From Bdellovibrionia bacterium (GTDB lineage Bacteria > Bdellovibrionota > UBA1018), in the NCBI GenBank assembly GCA_045805065.1, contig JBJMMA010000095.1, positions 1 to 21,186 on the forward strand: a stretch of 21,186 nt of DNA, given 5' to 3'. The notes below the pieces were generated by a model that was not told the DNA's origin, searched no databases, and was given only the letters and a program-made list of their open reading frames with translations. Shown in pieces: positions 284-21,150 of the stretch (position 1 is its first letter; the number at the start of each line of letters is the position of its first letter). The position numbers were made by a program, and so were the translations under genes.

Positions 284-2911
<2,628 letters not shown>

Positions 2912-2989
2912 GGATCGCCTCACCTCAAAGTTAAAGTTGAGTGAAGAAGATCGTGATGCTCGCGCTATTCAACTTGGGTCTTGCTATTA

Positions 2990-15443: not shown

Positions 15444-17261
15444 CTAGCGTTGGCTTTGGTAGCGCTTCTTGGCTTCTTTATCGAGGTGGAAGTACTTGAA
15501 GCGATTTTGAACAATGTCGCCGCTGCGATAGTTGAGCAGCCAGGGCTGCGAAAGATCATAGCGTGCGTAGTAGTATCCCATCGCCCAAGGGCAATCCTCT
15601 TGGATGATATCGTCAGCTTTTTTCACAAGAGCTGCGCGCTTGGGTCCTGACTCCATTCCTGCGATCTGCTCGTAGAGCTTGTCGTACTCAGGATTCTTGT
15701 AGTTGGCGTCGTTAGGACCAGGAGACTCGTTCTTGCTGTAGAGAAGCTGATAGACGTTCTCGGCATCCGGATAATCCATGTTCCAGCCGCCGTAGAAGAT
15801 CTGAAGATTCTTCTTCTTGGCTTTTTCAAGGAACGTCGGGAAAGTGTTCTGGTTCACGTCAACTTGAACGCCGATCTTGCCCCATTGGCTTTTGAAGAAT
15901 TCACCGACCTGGCGATCCACGGTTCCTGCACCGCGAAGGTCAAACTTGAGAACCGGAAGACCTTTTCCGTCTGGATAGCCTGCTTTTTTAAGAAGCTCTT
16001 TGGCGCGTGCAAGATCGTAATCGTACTTGATCTTGGCGTCTGTCGGACGATCAGGAATCCCAGGCGGAAGCGCAGTCACTTGCTTCTGGCCGGTTCCGTA
16101 CGTGAAGACGTCAATCCATTCGTCGCGATTGATCGCAGAGGACAAGGCCTGGCGCAGGTACTTGTTTGAGCCCAGGATCTTGTCTTCCATGTTGAATTCA
16201 ATCTGATAGAAGGCAACGCCCGTTTCAATCGTCAGGCGCATGCCCTTGGCCGCAAACTCGGGCGTGAGGTTCGTGCGATTGACGATCGTTTGCTTGAAGT
16301 AATCTTTCTGAAGCTGGAAGGCGTCTTGTGAGCCTTTCAGGAAATTGAGCCATGAAGGCTGCTGCTCTTCAGAGACTGAGTAAACGATCTTGTCCGCAAA
16401 CGGCATGGACTTGCCTGCGTCTGCAAGCATTCCTTTTTGCTGCCAATCGTTTGCTGCCTTGGTTGGATAAAAATCCGGATGGTAGTTTGGATTACGAACC
16501 AGAATCACTTGGCGGTTGCGATCCCATTTCTTGAACATGAACGGGCCGCTTCCTACAGCGTTATCTGTGAGGTTTCCTTTTTCATCGCCATACATTTCGA
16601 CTGCTTCATGAGGCACAGCAGCCGTTGCACCCATGGTCAGAACATATTTCAGCTGCGGGTAAGGCTTGGTGAGCTTGACTTGAAGCGTGTACGGATCAAG
16701 AGCTTTCAAACCTTCGATGGGCTCGGCAAAGATCTTTTCGGCTTCTTCCTTGTTTTTTGCAGCAACGAGCTTGTCATGGAATGCGTTGATTCCAACGACA
16801 CGGCCATCGACCGCCCACCAGAGCTGGGAGTCAAGCTGTGGAATCGCCAGGCGCTTGATCTGATAGATGAAGTCTTCGGCAGTGACTTCACGGCCTTTGC
16901 CATGGGTTGCCTTGAAGCAATCATTGTCCTGAAACTTGATGCCATGTTTGATTGGAATCGTGACCGTCAGGCGATCTTTGGAGTACTTCGGCATGTCAGC
17001 CGCAAGCAGAGGCTCTACTTCAACGCCATCTGTGAGATACGAATATTGGTAAAGCGATTCGTAGATGTTTGGGCCCACATCATTGCTGACCGAGTCGTAG
17101 GCGTTTGCAGGATCAAGGGTCTTCACGTCAGAGCGAAGTCCAACTGTGATGACGCTGAGTTTTTCGTCTTCAGCGTTTTTATGAGTGCAGCTCGAAAAGG
17201 AGAGCGCAACCGCCGTGATCACAAGAGAAGTGAAACCGAACCGATTCATCGCCATTTTCAT
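15444..17261 (-). CDS. ABC transporter substrate-binding lipoprotein, family 5 (OppA/DppA-like)
   Basis: Lipobox FSSC; TLDPA, IYESLYQY, PLLAADMP, VTAEDFIY, VGSGPF, LRQALSSAINR, GWNMDYPDAEN. AGGTGG lies 8 nt upstream of ATG 17261. Confidence 0.9.
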   Translation of the reverse strand: MKMAMNRFGFTSLVITAVALSFSSCTHKNAEDEKLSVITVGLRSDVKTLDPANAYDSVSNDVGPNIYESLYQYSYLTDGVEVEPLLAADMPKYSKDRLTVTIPIKHGIKFQDNDCFKATHGKGREVTAEDFIYQIKRLAIPQLDSQLWWAVDGRVVGINAFHDKLVAAKNKEEAEKIFAEPIEGLKALDPYTLQVKLTKPYPQLKYVLTMGATAAVPHEAVEMYGDEKGNLTDNAVGSGPFMFKKWDRNRQVILVRNPNYHPDFYPTKAANDWQQKGMLADAGKSMPFADKIVYSVSEEQQPSWLNFLKGSQDAFQLQKDYFKQTIVNRTNLTPEFAAKGMRLTIETGVAFYQIEFNMEDKILGSNKYLRQALSSAINRDEWIDVFTYGTGQKQVTALPPGIPDRPTDAKIKYDYDLARAKELLKKAGYPDGKGLPVLKFDLRGAGTVDRQVGEFFKSQWGKIGVQVDVNQNTFPTFLEKAKKKNLQIFYGGWNMDYPDAENVYQLLYSKNESPGPNDANYKNPEYDKLYEQIAGMESGPKRAALVKKADDIIQEDCPWAMGYYYARYDLSQPWLLNYRSGDIVQNRFKYFHLDKEAKKRYQSQR

Positions 17262-17284: not shown

Positions 17285-17310
17285 TTAACCCTCAAGCTGA
17301 CGCGGAACAA
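17285..17310 (-). repeat. Displaced copy of the alaS 3' end (att-like direct repeat, left copy)
   Basis: CAAGCTGACGCGGAACAA (17293-17310) matches CAAGCTTACGCGGAACAA (18441-18458) at 17/18. The minus strand reads VPRQLEG-TAA versus alaS VPRKLGQ-TAA. Confidence 0.75.
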
Positions 17311-17312
17311 CG

Positions 17313-17416
17313 GCAAAAGGTGCAAAAGGTGGTCGCCGACTTTTGGTAGTGCAGGTGCGTTATTTACGCAAAGGTAGCAAAGGTATGCCATACCTTTTTG
17401 TGGCGCAGGTGCGTTA
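17313..17416. repeat. Two degenerate ~50-nt palindromic repeat units (REP-like)
   Basis: Unit 1: GCAAAAGGT x2, GTCG-C-CGAC, TTTTG, GCAGGTGCGTTA (17351-17362). Unit 2: GCAAAGGTA x2, AAAGGTATG-C-CATACCTTT, TTG, GCAGGTGCGTTA (17405-17416). Confidence 0.75.
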
Positions 17417-17451
17417 GTTTTTGGGTCGATGTTCTGGCTCTTTTCGCGATT

Positions 17452-17478
17452 TTAGAAGAGTTCAACTTTTTCCGATAA
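17452..17478 (+). promoter_or_regulatory. Putative sigma28 promoter of the islet gene
   Basis: TTAG-N15-TCCGATAA, ending 9 nt before ATG 17488; the -35 is weak. Confidence 0.4.
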
Positions 17479-17487
17479 GCACTCTGG

Positions 17488-18432
17488 ATGCTCACCCGTT
17501 TCACAAAGCCAATCATCCTATTTTGTGTCCTGCTTCAGGCAATTGAAGCACCTCGGGCCTTTGCTGAGCAGTCCCCAAAGCCAAAGAATGTCGAGACGGT
17601 TACAATCAATGGCCACGAGATAACCACGGGAGATCTGGTTCTCGGTGGGACAGTGGCGCATATTGTTGTCGGCCGTACTTTGAATGGATTGCAGCGTGGA
17701 TATTTTGAGATTCGAGACTCGGAGTTTGACAAAGCAGCGGCAAAACTTATGTCAAAGCGAGCGGAGAAAGTGCTTTTTATCAGTTCGTTCAGCAAGGACG
17801 ATGTCTTCCGTTCCACTTCCGAAATGCGTTTCCAGAAGCTCTATGGAAATCATCCGAACGCACTATACCTTGAAGTTTCCAGCCCAAAGGAATTGATTTC
17901 AAAGCTGAAGGCTCTACCGCAGGATTCGAGCTTCGATCGGATAGAGATTGATATGCATGGAAACAAGGGCGTTCTGGGATTTTCAGACAAAACGTTGCTG
18001 ATGAGGCACGATCATCCTTGGTTTTCAAAGGATCAAAGTGATTTTGATGTGGAGGAGTTTAAGAGGGCGAATCTTCAAATTGCTAAGCCGGGTGCGGATC
18101 TGCGGATCTCTGCTTGTCGGATCGCCGATGAAGGGAAGTCAGGGAAACCGCTGGGAACAGACTTTCTGAATGATTTTGGAAAAAGCCTGATGCCTGAAGG
18201 CGGCCGAGTTTTCTCTACGGAGAAAATAGTTCTGCCTACCAAGTTTAATGTAGTAACGAAGATCCCTATTTTTGGCGTTCTCCTACATGCAGCGGAGCTG
18301 ACAGGAGACATCATCAAATATAAAATGCCAAAGGGCTTTCGCTTCCGAAAAGACGTGGTTCAGATCGATATTCCGCCAAAAGCGCCAAGCTGTGCGCCCG
18401 AAATCATTCAGGCACTACAGAAGGCTCTCTGA
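17488..18432 (+). CDS. Secreted hypothetical protein with DUF4347/clan CD-like His-Cys motifs
   Basis: Signal peptide ending RAFA; RIEIDMHGNKG and GADLRISACRIA..G...GTDFLNDFG pattern. Its stop codon directly abuts the alaS stop. Confidence 0.65.
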   Translation: MLTRFTKPIILFCVLLQAIEAPRAFAEQSPKPKNVETVTINGHEITTGDLVLGGTVAHIVVGRTLNGLQRGYFEIRDSEFDKAAAKLMSKRAEKVLFISSFSKDDVFRSTSEMRFQKLYGNHPNALYLEVSSPKELISKLKALPQDSSFDRIEIDMHGNKGVLGFSDKTLLMRHDHPWFSKDQSDFDVEEFKRANLQIAKPGADLRISACRIADEGKSGKPLGTDFLNDFGKSLMPEGGRVFSTEKIVLPTKFNVVTKIPIFGVLLHAAELTGDIIKYKMPKGFRFRKDVVQIDIPPKAPSCAPEIIQALQKAL

Positions 18433-21150
18433 TTACTGTCCAAGCTTACGCGGAACAAGCGCAAGGGCTTCTTTGATCATCTCTTGAAGACCTGCTGGCT
18501 TGGTTCCACCTGCTTGAGCAAAATCAGGCTTACCACCGCCCTTGGCGTCAATCTTTGGCGCAAGTTCCTTGAGAAGATCAGCAGCGCTGAGTCCTTTTGG
18601 AGCTTGAGGGCCGATTGCCACGACAAGCGATGCTTTCTCGGCTTCAGGATCCTTCATTCCAAGAATGACGACTGAGTCTGGAGCCTTCTGCTTGATGCGA
18701 TCGCAGAGATCGCGAAGCTTCTTCATGCCAGTTGCGTCGGGAGCAGAAAGTCCTGCAACAACACGTCCGCCGCCATTGAGCGCCACAGCTTTGGAGAGAA
18801 GCTCATCGACTTCGTTTCCTGCAGCCTTGGCCTGGAATTGATCGACTTGCTTCTTAAGATCGCGCTCGCTGGCCATCATCTTGTCGATCTTGCCCAGGAT
18901 CTCATCCGTGGACGAGACCTTGAGCTGATCGCGGACGTTCAGAAGATCCGTATAGCGAGCGCTCAGGAAATCAAACGCACCTCTGGAGGTGTAAGCGATG
19001 ATGCGACGGACGCCCGCGGCGATGCCGCTCTCGTTTCCGATCTTGAAAAGATGAATCTCAGCTGAGTTGTCAACGTGGGTACCGCCGCAAAGCTCGGTGG
19101 AGAAATTGCCAACCGAGACAACGCGAACTTGATCGCCGTACTTTTCGCCGAAGAAAGCGATGGCGCCTGCGGCAACCGCTGCATCCTTGGACATCTCGCG
19201 CTTTTGAACAGGTTCAGCGCGCCAGATCTTCTCATTGATCATGGTTTCAACGCGCTTGAGCTCCTCGTCCGTCATGGGCTGAAAGTGCGAAAAGTCAAAG
19301 CGGAGCATGTCAGGCGCAACCACAGAGCCGGCTTGCTTGACGTGCTTTCCAAGGACTTCGCGAAGTGCCCAGTGGAGAAGGTGAGTTGCCGTGTGATTTC
19401 GAGCGGTGAGCGCGCGCACTTCGGTGTCTGTTTGCTGCGTATAAGTCCCACCCACACGGAGCGAGCCCTTCTTCGGGCGAACGTGCGCAATGATGAGATC
19501 TGCCACTGGCTTTTGAACGTCAATGACTTCGCCTTCGAAATCGCTGCCAACCACACGACCATGGTCACCGACCTGACCGCCGCTCTCACCGTAGAAAGGC
19601 GTCACATCGAAAACAACTTCGATGATCGGAGTGTCTTCAACCGCGCCGCCGGTCGCAGCAATCGGTGGAGTAGTGTAGAAATCAGCTTGTTGGAATCCTT
19701 TTTGTTGCGGGACCAGGATAGCCAGGCACTTGCCAGTGGCTTCGATGGCGTCATAGCCCACAAACTTTGGAAGCGCGTTTTTGGCCTTCAGATCATTTGC
19801 GACCTGCATATAGATCGCATTGATGGCTTCTTCGCCCGAGCCCTTCCAGGCTTTACGAGCGGTCTCGCGCTGACGGTCCATGGCTTTCTCAAAGCCATCT
19901 TCATCAACGGTAAGTCCCTTCTCGTTCAAAATCACGCGAGTGAGATCGAGCGGGAAGCCGAAAGTATCGTAAAGTTTGAAAGCAACGTCGCCTGGGAGAG
20001 TCTTGCTCTTTCCAAGTTTTGCGGTTTCCTCGTCCAGAAGTGCCAAGCCCTTCTCGAGAGTACGGAAGAATTGCTCTTCTTCGGCTTGAACGGCTTTTTC
20101 GATGAAAGCGCGCTTTTCAACAAGATCTGGATAAGCGTCCTTCATTTGATCGATGACGTATCCAGCGGTCTTGTGAAGGAATGGACCACTGAAGCCGAGC
20201 TTCTTACCGTAACGGATCGCACGGCGCATGATACGGCGAAGGACGTAGCCACGGCCTTCGTTGGATGGCATGACGCCATCACCGATCAGGAAAGCAGTTG
20301 CGCGAGAGTGGTCAGCGATCACGCGGAACGCAAAAGCGTTCTCGGATTTTGGATCGTATGGAGTTTTTGCGAGCTCTGCCGTCTTTCCAATGATCATCTG
20401 GAAAGCGTCGGTGTCGTAGTTCGTATCGACTTCCTGAAGAATGGAAGCGAGACGCTCAAGTCCTGCGCCGGTATCGACCGATGGCTTTGGAAGCGGGGTG
20501 AGTTTTCCAGAAGCGTCGCGATCAAATTGCATGAACACGAGGTTCCAGAACTCCATGTAGCGATCGCAATCGCAGCCCATGCCGCAAGTCGGCTTTCCGC
20601 AGCTGTATTTCTCACCGCGATCAATGAAGATTTCGCTGCAAGGACCGCAGGGGCCGGTATCGCCCATGGACCAGAAGTTATCTTTTTCGCCAAAGCGATA
20701 GATGCGATCGCGTGGGACACCTTCCTGGTTGTGCCAGATGTCAGCAGCCTCATCGTCTTTTTCAAAGACGGTGACATAGAGGCGATCCAAAGGAAGTTTG
20801 AGCTCTTTCGTCACAAACTCCCATGCAAAGTGAATTGCCTCTTTCTTGAAGTAATCGCCAAAGGAGAAGTTTCCAAGCATTTCGAAAAACGTGTGATGGC
20901 GCGCAGTGTAGCCAACGTTTTCCAAGTCGTTATGTTTGCCGCCTGCGCGAACGCATTTCTGAGAAGTGGTTGCTCGGGTGTATGGACGCTTGTCCTTACC
21001 CAAGAAGACGTCTTTGAATTGGTTCATGCCCGCATTCGTGAAAAGAAGCGTTGGGTCATTCTGTGGAACCAGCGACGAGCTATCCACGACCGTGTGACCG
21101 TTTTTTTCGAAGTATTTCAGGAATTTCGAGCGAATTTCGGCGGCTTTCAT
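18433..21150 (-). CDS. alaS: Alanine-tRNA ligase
   Basis: DPTLLFTNAGM, RHHTFFEMLGNFSFGDYFK, VDTGAGLER, GYVLRRIMRRA, FKLYDTFGFP, editing motifs NHTATH and ELCGGTH, GGGKPDFAQAGG. Confidence 0.99.
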   Translation of the reverse strand: MKAAEIRSKFLKYFEKNGHTVVDSSSLVPQNDPTLLFTNAGMNQFKDVFLGKDKRPYTRATTSQKCVRAGGKHNDLENVGYTARHHTFFEMLGNFSFGDYFKKEAIHFAWEFVTKELKLPLDRLYVTVFEKDDEAADIWHNQEGVPRDRIYRFGEKDNFWSMGDTGPCGPCSEIFIDRGEKYSCGKPTCGMGCDCDRYMEFWNLVFMQFDRDASGKLTPLPKPSVDTGAGLERLASILQEVDTNYDTDAFQMIIGKTAELAKTPYDPKSENAFAFRVIADHSRATAFLIGDGVMPSNEGRGYVLRRIMRRAIRYGKKLGFSGPFLHKTAGYVIDQMKDAYPDLVEKRAFIEKAVQAEEEQFFRTLEKGLALLDEETAKLGKSKTLPGDVAFKLYDTFGFPLDLTRVILNEKGLTVDEDGFEKAMDRQRETARKAWKGSGEEAINAIYMQVANDLKAKNALPKFVGYDAIEATGKCLAILVPQQKGFQQADFYTTPPIAATGGAVEDTPIIEVVFDVTPFYGESGGQVGDHGRVVGSDFEGEVIDVQKPVADLIIAHVRPKKGSLRVGGTYTQQTDTEVRALTARNHTATHLLHWALREVLGKHVKQAGSVVAPDMLRFDFSHFQPMTDEELKRVETMINEKIWRAEPVQKREMSKDAAVAAGAIAFFGEKYGDQVRVVSVGNFSTELCGGTHVDNSAEIHLFKIGNESGIAAGVRRIIAYTSRGAFDFLSARYTDLLNVRDQLKVSSTDEILGKIDKMMASERDLKKQVDQFQAKAAGNEVDELLSKAVALNGGGRVVAGLSAPDATGMKKLRDLCDRIKQKAPDSVVILGMKDPEAEKASLVVAIGPQAPKGLSAADLLKELAPKIDAKGGGKPDFAQAGGTKPAGLQEMIKEALALVPRKLGQ

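Follow-up and report, generated by a model that had tools for sequence, protein, structure and literature searches.

The window, that is, the whole stretch of 21,186 nucleotides that was analysed, comes from a Bdellovibrio-like soil bacterium whose genome is 94% complete. The alanyl-tRNA synthetase gene alaS (18433..21150, minus strand; Pfam tRNA-synt_2c with E 2.1e-215, tRNA_SAD and DHHA1) encodes 905 amino acids, and its product is 93.5% identical to the orthologue in G001, a member of the same genus. The working tail of the gene (18433..18465, minus strand) reads LALVPRKLGQ* (CTT GCG CTT GTT CCG CGT AAG CTT GGA CAG TAA), the stop being the reverse complement of 18433-18435, and two further alanyl-tRNA synthetases, P0006 (96% identical) and P0007 (94% identical), end in the same tail. 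Facing alaS is a gene of 314 codons (17488..18432, plus strand), here called the cargo gene, and its TGA (18430-18432) meets the alaS stop with a gap of zero. At a distance of 1148 nt downstream of the working tail a second copy of the alaS end is found in frame (17285..17317, minus strand), reading FAVVPRQLEG* (TTT GCC GTT GTT CCG CGT CAG CTT GAG GGT TAA). These left (working) and right (relic) direct-repeat copies have identical stop register and agree at 24 of 33 positions and at 17 of 18 in the core; repeat finding aligned 17293-17316 with 18441-18464 at 21/24 identity. The first-pass annotation had described the duplicated tails, their spacing, register and core, and the zero gap, and all of these read as it claimed. 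Beyond the relic, with 23 nt between the relic and its ATG, lies the gene of a family-5 solute-binding protein (SBP) lipoprotein (15444..17261, minus strand; Pfam SBP_bac_5, E 1.1e-70), 89% identical at the amino acid level to its G001 orthologue.

Comparison with relatives clarifies how this arrangement arose. In G001 the site is empty: alaS ends in ...VPRKLSG* and is followed by a 24-nt spacer and then by the SBP gene, so that the true alaS end lies at nearly the distance at which the relic lies here, and synteny with G001 is broken exactly at the repeat. Of 29 relatives, 21 have an SBP orthologue no more than 160 nt from alaS, and the SBP gene is taken as the ancestral downstream neighbour of alaS. 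Chance resemblance can be excluded as the origin of the repeat, since sliding the alaS 33-mer across 8,426,598 genome positions gave a single non-self match of at least 23/33, which is the relic itself, since none of five shuffled-pair controls (5273 ORF tails, each compared with the 8 kb downstream) attained 24/33 with the stop in register, and since the best local scores in the alaS-downstream gaps of nine relatives were 7-9, compared with 18 at this locus. AlaRS tails vary from genus to genus without conservation, and the relic shares residues with congeners (F with the P0008 tail, VPR with the tails of G000 and G001, and G before the stop with that of G001); together with its uniqueness in the genome, this sequence comparison identifies the relic as a genuine alaS tail of this genus. 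We conclude that, in the lineage of this species, foreign DNA of lower GC content, 1148 bp long and carrying one gene, was inserted within the final 33 bases of alaS, and that the relic is the surviving, non-functional alaS end. An insertion at this very place, leaving a relic, had been proposed at the outset, and the empty site in G001 bears it out.

The cargo gene is present in a single copy in the genome, and it is the only sizeable ORF of the insert apart from those inside or antisense to it. Its GC content is 0.475 against 0.517 for the genome (2.4th percentile among 2106 long ORFs), in agreement with its earlier description as AT-richer. The protein begins with a signal-peptide-like helix and has no Pfam match; it does not reach the cut-off of DUF4347 (PF14252). 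A 30%-identical homologue, P0004, passes that profile (E 3.6e-7, 30.5 bits with a cut-off of 24.6), which suggests a distant link between the cargo and DUF4347. The AlphaFold2 model (pLDDT 88.4) was used for a Foldseek search against the PDB, where caspases lead the matches (E 4e-5, probability 1.0) and the TcdB protease domain, a SAVED-CHAT filament and the type VI secretion (T6SS) protein Tce1 also appear; global TM-scores are low (0.25-0.35). His157 in an HG motif and, after it, Cys210 in an AC motif are invariant across 30 sequences, and a caspase-like α/β fold with a His-then-Cys dyad is in keeping with clan CD, the dyad being judged here by fold and conservation rather than by residue-by-residue comparison of aligned active-site positions. 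The cargo is read as a putative secreted, clan-CD-like cysteine peptidase with a caspase fold. Compared with the known clan CD caspase/CHAT-like peptidases and with DUF4347, it would represent a stand-alone secreted form of about 310 amino acids with predicted activity; the label of effector, which the first-pass annotation attached to it, is unproven. No donor of the cargo was found, the family has no match in plasmid or phage collections, and the nearest relatives with a known genomic place (37-38% identical, in G011 and G107) are located away from alaS.

The region between the relic and the cargo gene contains two kinds of feature. A candidate sigma28-like promoter, TAGA-N15-CCGATAA (17453..17478, plus strand), lies 9 nt before the cargo ATG, and no sigma70-type site was found upstream of the cargo. 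The pattern is present as had been pointed out, but it is a pattern match, and in its relaxed form it occurs 13 times in the genome compared with 14-22 times in three shuffled versions, which is no enrichment. Closer to the relic, palindromic units derived from REP/MITE sequences occupy 17321..17420 and start 4-6 nt from its inner end. They comprise a terminal-repeat unit of a palindromic MITE of about 240 bp (17321-17360), the 19-nt palindrome AAAGGTATGCCATACCTTT (17379-17397) and a second, diverged unit (17393-17420). The MITE family has at least 14 full copies in the genome, and these are palindromes of about 240 bp without genes; the segment 17321/17323-17360 is matched by other metagenome contigs with unlike flanks, and on contig C34 the same 19-nt palindrome stands in tandem beside a Y1-transposase-like gene.

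Such neighbours raise the question of whether the palindromes are the ends of an element that carried the cargo and was moved by a Y1 (RAYT-like) transposase. The closeness of the units to the relic, the six Y1_Tnp matches in the genome, one of them flanked by that 19-nt palindrome, and the size of the MITE family are in keeping with such mobilization. However, only one flank of the cargo has such units, and they are in direct orientation; the zero-gap junction between the cargo stop and alaS has no unit at all, and the REP_A and REP_B units are absent (allowing up to 4 mismatches) from the other seven loci examined; moreover, a target duplication of 33 nt is not known from Y1 transposition. 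We consider this origin highly improbable. A REPIN, MITE or IS200-IS605-type element was rejected likewise, because inverted hairpin ends on both sides are missing. The palindromes do adjoin the relic as first noticed, but their inclusion in a cassette does not hold, and these pieces are better regarded as later or incidental passengers belonging to a genome-wide repeat family.

The insert was first described as lacking an integrase, and this description stands: neither within the insert nor elsewhere in the 21-kb window did Pfam scans of the large ORFs detect an integrase or transposase, and none of the four Phage_integrase (PF00589) and six Y1_Tnp (PF01797) matches of the genome falls on this contig. 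There is no tRNA gene. Excision joints were not seen in four sequencing runs, which were available as contigs at word depth 2-4 and are therefore shallow. DprA is present in the genome and ComEC (PF03772) was not found in it, so that natural transformation is unsupported. An integron cassette was rejected on its layout, as attC has no room in a gap of zero after the ORF stop, the repeats are upstream of the ORF, and there is a single insert between housekeeping genes with no integrase nearby.

The same arrangement can be read as the product of site-specific integration, in which the repeats are attL and attR, the alaS end has been restored, and the integrase acted in trans or was lost as an island decayed. 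The repeats do hold the 3' end of the target and a relative has the empty site; the direct-repeat topology, with a 17/18 core and diverged arms, is att-like, four tyrosine-recombinase genes exist elsewhere in the genome, and islands integrating at the 3' ends of protein genes are known, PAISt at bacA being an example. Against it, neither a recombinase nor a remnant of one is inside or adjacent to the insert, there is no tRNA gene, and the cargo family has no match in the plasmid and phage collections. Further evidence comes from other loci of the same genome.

The scan of ORF tails against their downstream 8 kb, with the stop in register, revealed 16 orphan tail copies of at least 24/33, compared with 0 in each of the five controls. 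Two of these loci, C163 and C5, share the layout of alaS: a housekeeping gene, a single convergent gene of low GC content, separated at its stop from the working tail by 0-13 nt, and a relic tail. The earlier suggestion that other duplicated gene ends would be found was thus correct, but the same palindromic repeats were not found at the seven other loci examined. The direct repeats at alaS, C163 and C5 show no sequence relationship and have unequal lengths (24-33, 49 and 87-104 nt), which makes a trans-acting site-specific recombinase unlikely; as each locus holds one gene, this reading would also require three independent islands, all of them reduced to one convergent gene. Integration by such an enzyme is thus very doubtful, and of the two agents first proposed, a trans-acting recombinase or microhomology, it is capture through (micro)homology that agrees with the data.

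The C5 locus bears on the source of the tail. Its working tail and relic differ at 17 sites, and the sister matches the relic at 11 of them, the working copy at 1 and neither at 5; among the 16 differing codons 13 are synonymous and 3 non-synonymous. In two windows just upstream of the repeat the identity to G001 is 0.73 and 0.81, and inside the repeat the working tail falls to 0.61. By these comparisons the working gene end at C5 is clearly a foreign allele and the relic the native one. C163 has its empty site in G001 (none is established for C5), and its 49-nt repeat, 92% identical, spans the overlap of two convergent gene ends; because the repeat coincides with overlapping gene ends, selection acting on any duplication explains C163 equally well.

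The common layout with unrelated repeats, together with the foreign end at C5, favours host homologous recombination over a site-specific recombinase, and the insertion in alaS looks like an old scar of ordinary recombination rather than a new kind of mobile element. The incoming DNA would have brought its own short copy of an alaS tail and would have been joined to the chromosome through this short homology by ordinary host recombination, by a Campbell-type route or by homology-facilitated illegitimate recombination (HFIR), neither of which needs a site-specific enzyme. The new alaS end would then be complete and abut the cargo stop, and the old end would be pushed to its place before the SBP gene; the insertion has probably passed by descent to two or three sister species, with the cargo diverging quickly. 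It fits this course of events that resident sequence is duplicated at the borders of the insert, one copy being contiguous with the foreign DNA. On the other hand, neither a donor nor support for natural transformation was found, and 33 bases, with a core of 17/18 today, are short for a RecA-dependent crossover. Altogether, we give about an even chance to the reading in which an alaS tail was captured long ago by host recombination with a caspase-fold cargo and incidental REP/MITE pieces.

At alaS itself the informative sites point to neither tail as the foreign one: the sister agrees with the working tail at 5 of them and with the relic at 3, and differs from both at 1. Moreover, the KLGQ* tail also occurs in 70%-identical AlaRS, so that both copies could be native, and the sliding identity of alaS to G001 revealed no foreign tract at the 3' end. 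These observations bring in a second explanation, according to which illegitimate recombination or repair, for example staggered-break fill-in or template switching, copied the recipient's own 33-nt alaS end and the two native copies diverged later. The balance of 5 to 3, a working tail that looks native for the wider family, the missing foreign tract and the selectable C163 duplication all speak for it. At C5, however, the working copy holds 11 of the 12 polarisable differences, mostly synonymous, which is the opposite of neutral decay of a relic, and the 9 differences at alaS are spread too unevenly for decay, with 5 in the last two sense codons and one in the central 18 nt. We also know of no bacterial mechanism that routinely makes target duplications of 33-100 nt. 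In-situ duplication is rather unlikely, and clearly less probable than homology capture.

The event at alaS does not appear to be recent. Identity to the relic is 73% for the working tail and 61% for the G001 tail, and alaS four-fold sites of G000 and G001 are 52% identical; judged from these values, the divergence of the relic is near the neutral divergence within the genus. P0002 and P0003, homologues with 52-54% identity to the cargo, have longest contigs of 75723 and 42187, and the SBP orthologues P0126 (93%) and P0128 (90%) have the same longest contigs and sources; from this equality of contig sizes only, the two homologues seem to adjoin alaS and the SBP gene in two congeners, where they are probably orthologous to the cargo. 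The relic divergence and the diverged cargo homologues on the contigs of the SBP orthologues thus make the event look old, about the age of the genus radiation, which speaks against the active cassette swapping initially envisaged. Other cargo in the slot between alaS and SBP, also envisaged, was indeed found, but between genera only: G016 has an alpha/beta hydrolase there and G012 an unknown protein of 322 aa, and in G010, again of another genus, an arginase-family gene follows alaS and the SBP gene is absent within 1.5 kb. Within the genus there are only the 52-54% identical homologues, their place near alaS and SBP being that deduced from the contigs.

A wider possibility, which we regard as unlikely, is that single accessory genes travel as tail-addressed cassettes at several loci (alaS, C163, C5, perhaps C152 and C161). 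If so, each cassette would bear a brief copy of one given housekeeping gene's 3' terminus; recombination between the two tail copies on its flanks could release it as a circle, and host recombination, with no other help, could return it to that gene in a related genome. In the slot between alaS and SBP, highly diverged cargo alleles (52-54% identical, compared with 89-93% for the neighbouring SBP) would then be exchangeable for one another.

Among known systems, integrase-borne islands resemble this locus in that their repeats include the 3' end of the target gene, which is made whole again, and in that the site is empty in relatives. The present insert differs in lacking an integrase and in its small size of 1.1 kb with one gene, and the repeats at analogous loci are unrelated. 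The minimal mobile element is a concept developed in Neisseria. Like those elements and other integrase-free hotspots, this locus is a core-gene slot with lineage-varying genes and no mobility genes, and different cassettes occur between the same flanking genes, here across genera. According to PMC5635113, integrases are missing from many hotspots of horizontal gene transfer, where exchange is attributed to recombination at the core genes on either side. At alaS the relic marks a one-sided or single-crossover event, whereas a double crossover in the flanks leaves no duplicated end. Campbell-type insertion-duplication and HFIR are similar to this locus, as entry takes place through one short homology by host recombination only, no mobility gene is present, and the insert ends up next to a duplicated or displaced piece of resident sequence. 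The anchors known from HFIR experiments are longer than those here (33 nt today, and 87-104 nt at C5), and the target here is a housekeeping gene with a single unrelated gene as cargo. HFIR has been proposed in PMC5361080 to explain displaced 3' ends in T6SS and Rhs arrays, and in the Rhs/CDI/T6SS arrays treated there a new end arrives with a neighbour gene while the old end remains downstream, as at alaS. Those systems swap variable toxin tips of one family and build arrays; at alaS there is a single relic, and the gene end is an ordinary copy of a synthetase tail, with equivalent function.

The alaS gene (18433-21150, minus strand, 905 aa) ends in a working tail that occupies 18433-18465 and reads, in reverse complement, CTT GCG CTT GTT CCG CGT AAG CTT GGA CAG TAA. 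A second version of that tail, the relic TTT GCC GTT GTT CCG CGT CAG CTT GAG GGT TAA, lies on the same strand at 17285-17317, 1148 nt downstream, with its stop codon in register; the two agree at 21 of 24 positions in the repeat search and at 24 of 33 over the full 33 nt. Between them a cargo ORF encoding 314 aa runs on the plus strand (17488-18432), with zero gap between its TGA and the alaS stop, and beyond the relic lies the gene for a family-5 solute-binding protein (SBP; 15444-17261, minus strand). The first-pass annotation had described an alaS end duplicated downstream in register and a cargo stop touching the alaS stop, and the sequence bears out both.

According to three checks, the duplicated alaS tail is more than a chance resemblance. 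First, when the alaS 33-mer was slid across all 8,426,598 positions of the genome, the relic was the one non-self match of at least 23, and two positions reached 22. Second, for 5273 ORFs (150 aa or longer) the tail was compared with the 8 kb downstream; counting only targets with the stop in register and an open frame under 80 aa, 16 matches reached at least 24/33, against 0 in each of five shuffled-pair controls (control maximum 23). Third, when the alaS tail was aligned locally to the gap downstream of alaS, the top score was 7-9 in nine relatives and 18 in the window. A relic scan at the protein level returned eight matches against 0 in five controls, and its additions were only known loci or paralogue-like cases.

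The empty site predicted by the first-pass annotation exists in G001, the sole other species-level genome in the genus, where 24 nt separate the alaS stop (L032, 2537-2539) from the SBP start. In blastn, the interruption of synteny between the two genomes falls precisely in the interval from the alaS end to the SBP start, and the unaligned stretch between the blocks is 34 nt in G001 and 1193 nt in our genome. The relic, 23 nt before the SBP ATG (17261), stands in the place taken by the real alaS end in G001. Across the loci of 29 relatives, the aligned SBP start lies within 160 nt of the alaS end in 21 (including L004 and L023, placed by tblastn coordinates), a gap of about 330-1120 nt precedes the SBP in four, an HD-domain gene directly follows alaS in two, and the remaining two have no SBP or HD gene within 1.5 kb. 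This adjacency and the empty site in G001 identify the empty state as ancestral. The C-terminal tails of AlaRS vary from genus to genus, and the relic is recognisable as the alaS tail of a member of this genus by its VPR, its F, in common with the AlaRS P0008, and its G-stop, in common with G001. Four soil-metagenome runs contain the stretch, and no RNA data set was listed as containing it. In these four runs contigs span the two junctions in the arrangement of the window, and no joints indicating excision or an empty site were seen, at a word depth of 2-4 that is too shallow to be informative.

The insert consists of one gene and 170 nt of upstream DNA (17318-17487) between the relic and the cargo ATG. 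This upstream DNA holds a terminal-repeat unit of a palindromic MITE of about 240 bp (17321-17360), a second, diverged repeat unit (17393-17420) and a 19-nt palindrome (17379-17397). Full copies of the MITE number at least 14 genome-wide, its hairpin occurs at 39 sites with up to three mismatches, and further metagenome contigs match 17321/17323-17360 but are unlike the window on either side of it. The palindromic repeats do adjoin the relic, as the first-pass annotation had it, but they were not found at the other loci with duplicated tails. Mobilisation of the cargo by a REP/RAYT system, which would give such repeats a role, is highly improbable: the units flank the cargo on one side only and none was found at the analogous loci examined, and they are therefore taken as incidental. 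A sigma28-like promoter had also been proposed for the cargo; the pattern is present at 17453-17478, but the motif has no genome-wide enrichment to support it. A sigma70 promoter scan for the SBP gene in and near the relic found none, and the intergenic part contains no tRNA gene and no Rfam family, the one match falling far under threshold (19 vs 50 bits).

The Pfam scan detected no integrase or transposase in the window, and the search for unlinked recombinases located four Phage_integrase and six Y1_Tnp hits in the genome, all on other contigs. Several further observations concern mobile or phage-like sequences. The MITE-like elements of about 240 bp are fully palindromic (C10:13783-14079, C148:7090-7387, C103:22477-22773 and at least 11 more), with a conserved interior and terminal units that hold the hairpin CAAAAGGTGGTCGCCTACTTTTGG, and many copies begin directly after a TAA. 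Contig C34 encodes a Y1-transposase-like (RAYT-like) protein of 218 aa (C34:40679-41400; L049:1100-1818), and just past the 3' end of its gene the 19-nt palindrome AAAGGTATGCCATACCTTT, the one found in the window, occurs twice in tandem, the first copy beginning where the adjacent gene has its stop codon. At 284-2923 (minus strand) the window encodes, among housekeeping genes, a protein of 879 aa that combines collagen triple-helix repeats with Peptidase_S74 (endosialidase chaperone) at the C-terminus; phage tail fibres typically have this domain arrangement.

The cargo protein begins with MLTRFTKPIILFCVLLQAIEAPRAFA/EQ, which by eye reads as a likely Sec signal peptide, and it has no Pfam match; its homologue P0004 (30% identity) passes DUF4347. 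Two residues are invariant in an alignment of 30 sequences, the His of an HG motif (H157) and the Cys of an AC motif (C210). The AlphaFold2 model has a mean pLDDT of 88.4, and Foldseek against the PDB places caspases on top (E 4e-5, probability 1.0), with further matches to a T6SS Tce1 entry, a SAVED-CHAT filament and the TcdB protease domain. The cargo is accordingly read as a putative secreted clan-CD-like cysteine peptidase, and as such it would extend a small, little-known family of secreted caspase-fold proteins from Bdellovibrio-like bacteria. At E ≤0.001 homologues number five proteins in an index of 5.8 billion and 48 representatives among 1.84 billion proteins. Within the order, 9 of 116 genomes have matches, this one included, with strong scores only in G011 and G107 (37-38% identity); in G011 the homologue sits after an Nramp gene and alaS is on a different contig. 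The same query found no homologue in G001. A metagenome scan with the single protein gave no match, a scan with the cargo alignment gave only relatives at 36-37%, and a scan of genome contigs gave four distant relatives. An origin from a plasmid or phage was rejected, as the cargo matched nothing in either collection. Its GC content of 0.475 lies at the 2.4th percentile of long ORFs.

Two congeners bear on the age of the insertion. The SBP orthologue P0126 (93% identity) and the cargo homologue P0002 both have a longest contig of 75,723 nt (source jgi), and the SBP orthologue P0128 (90%) and the cargo homologue P0003 both have one of 42,187 nt (source lgn), from which we infer that the cargo homologues adjoin alaS and the SBP gene in these congeners. 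Identity among the three cargo proteins is 52-54%, and among the SBPs 89-93%. The relic has 73% identity with the working tail and 61% with that of G001, and the four-fold degenerate sites of alaS are 52% identical between the two genomes (422 sites). Both lines are consistent with an insertion dating from about the time when the genus radiated, which would have been inherited by one subclade and be absent from G001. In a comparison with the SBP orthologues P0126-P0130, the SBP start (17249-17261) reads MK(K/M)AMNR here and in three congeners, and MKRIG or MNRIG in G001 and in the orthologue P0130; the longer start may mark the insertion-carrying clade, because its four carriers include both congeners whose contigs hold a cargo homologue.

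Other duplicated gene 3' ends, which the first-pass annotation had suggested looking for, do occur in the genome. Eight loci behind the 16 scan matches were inspected; C152:37245, C48 and C182 (minus) are repeat- or paralogue-like, and C182 (plus), C68, C247, C190 and C188 were set aside as such cases on periodic or multiple matches alone. Two clean analogues of alaS were found, on contigs C163 and C5. At C163:17620-18620 (L059:2020-3020) one gene is inserted at the gene of an RluA-type pseudouridine synthase (PF00849). It is a convergent LRR-like orphan encoding 277 aa (GC 0.426; relatives in one other of 115 genomes of the order, at 28% identity), and it lies between the copies of a 49-nt repeat, which agree at 92%. 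In G001 the site is empty and the repeat occurs once. The repeat is the stretch in which two convergent genes, those for the synthase and for a SAM-methyltransferase, overlap at their 3' ends, so that each copy serves one gene. At C5:1018-1865 (L060) the target is a DEAD/DUF3516 helicase gene, followed by a convergent DUF4136 lipoprotein gene with stops 8 nt apart (best relative 30% identical) and then a relic of 87-104 nt. Of the 17 sites that distinguish the working end from the relic, G001 matches the relic at 11, the working end at one and neither at five, and 13 of the 16 differing codons are synonymous. The relic is therefore the native end, and the working end a foreign allele whose evolution as a coding sequence took place elsewhere. 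Identity to G001 is 0.73 and 0.81 in two windows just upstream of the repeat and 0.61 for the working tail inside it. Weaker candidates lie at C152:19789-20369 (tail copy 24/33, convergent ORF of 167 aa) and C161:5726-7870 (27/33, 427 aa). The search for empty sites of C5, C152 and C161 in G001 met contig breaks or downstream DNA that could not be aligned.

At alaS, C163 and C5 alike, one convergent low-GC gene is packed on the working tail and no recombinase is present, and the repeats of the three loci are unrelated and differ in length. This argues against a site-specific enzyme, and with it against the trans-acting recombinase invoked by the first-pass annotation; site-specific integration is a doubtful explanation for the alaS insert. 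A common motif was also sought among the three repeats and rejected, as by eye they have only AAGCT/AAGCC-like pentamers in common, not above chance. We favour entry through short homology to a gene tail by means of host recombination, as the layout of the loci suggests. A small circle bearing a copy of the tail could have entered by a single crossover, or a linear fragment could have joined by homologous exchange at one end and an illegitimate join at the other.

Several observations at alaS weigh against entry through tail homology. The informative sites are balanced, 5 vs 3, and the working tail, KLGQ*, looks native to the family; a foreign tract within alaS was rejected, as none stands out in a sliding comparison with G001. 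In the assembly, which is 94% complete, DprA is present (C171:5751-6326), but a search for ComEC (PF03772) found none. Moreover, 33 nt is short for such a crossover. In view of the sites, the native-looking tail, the lack of a foreign tract, the missing ComEC and the short repeat, duplication of the native alaS tail in situ is a serious rival, still on the unlikely side but ahead of both site-specific integration and REP/RAYT mobilisation. Entry through tail homology remains the favoured reading; a bolder version, in which tail-addressed cassettes move by host recombination, seems rather improbable.

The alaS locus is a clean, datable footprint of the gain of one gene, in a compact genome, between tightly packed core genes, neither of which was broken and with no enzyme from a mobile element; the join is recognisable by the displaced gene end. 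The synonymous differences at C5 show that the working gene end arrived together with its cargo. Should such relics prove common (several are present in this genome), they would offer a simple sequence signature by which integrase-free gene gain could be counted and dated, and which would separate one-sided capture from a double crossover in flanking genes. A limited search of the open-access literature found no description of the alaS case or of this exact pattern.

We file the alaS locus as a recombination scar of gene gain, a known type of event. Its topology is that of integrative islands, but it lacks their defining feature, a recombinase. The first-pass annotation had suggested that other strains may carry different cargo at alaS, and other genera do have other genes there: in G016 a convergent alpha/beta hydrolase gene (L014, 540-1468) whose stop overlaps that of alaS by 4 nt and whose ATG is 13 nt from the SBP start, in G012 a gene for a 322-aa protein with no Pfam family (L012, 2250-3372), and in G010 an arginase-family gene (L005, 385-1495) with no SBP gene within 1.5 kb; no alaS tail relic is found at these three loci. 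The alaS-SBP slot behaves like the integrase-free hotspots, and sections of one study of horizontal gene transfer describe many hotspots without integrases and evidence that recombination at flanking core genes contributes (PMC5635113). The layout at alaS matches Campbell-type scars and those of homology-facilitated illegitimate recombination, and it follows the logic of the displaced ends at Rhs/T6SS loci; passages of a paper on T6SS/Rhs arrays ascribe displaced 3' ends to homology-facilitated illegitimate recombination, the same explanation as the one favoured here (PMC5361080).
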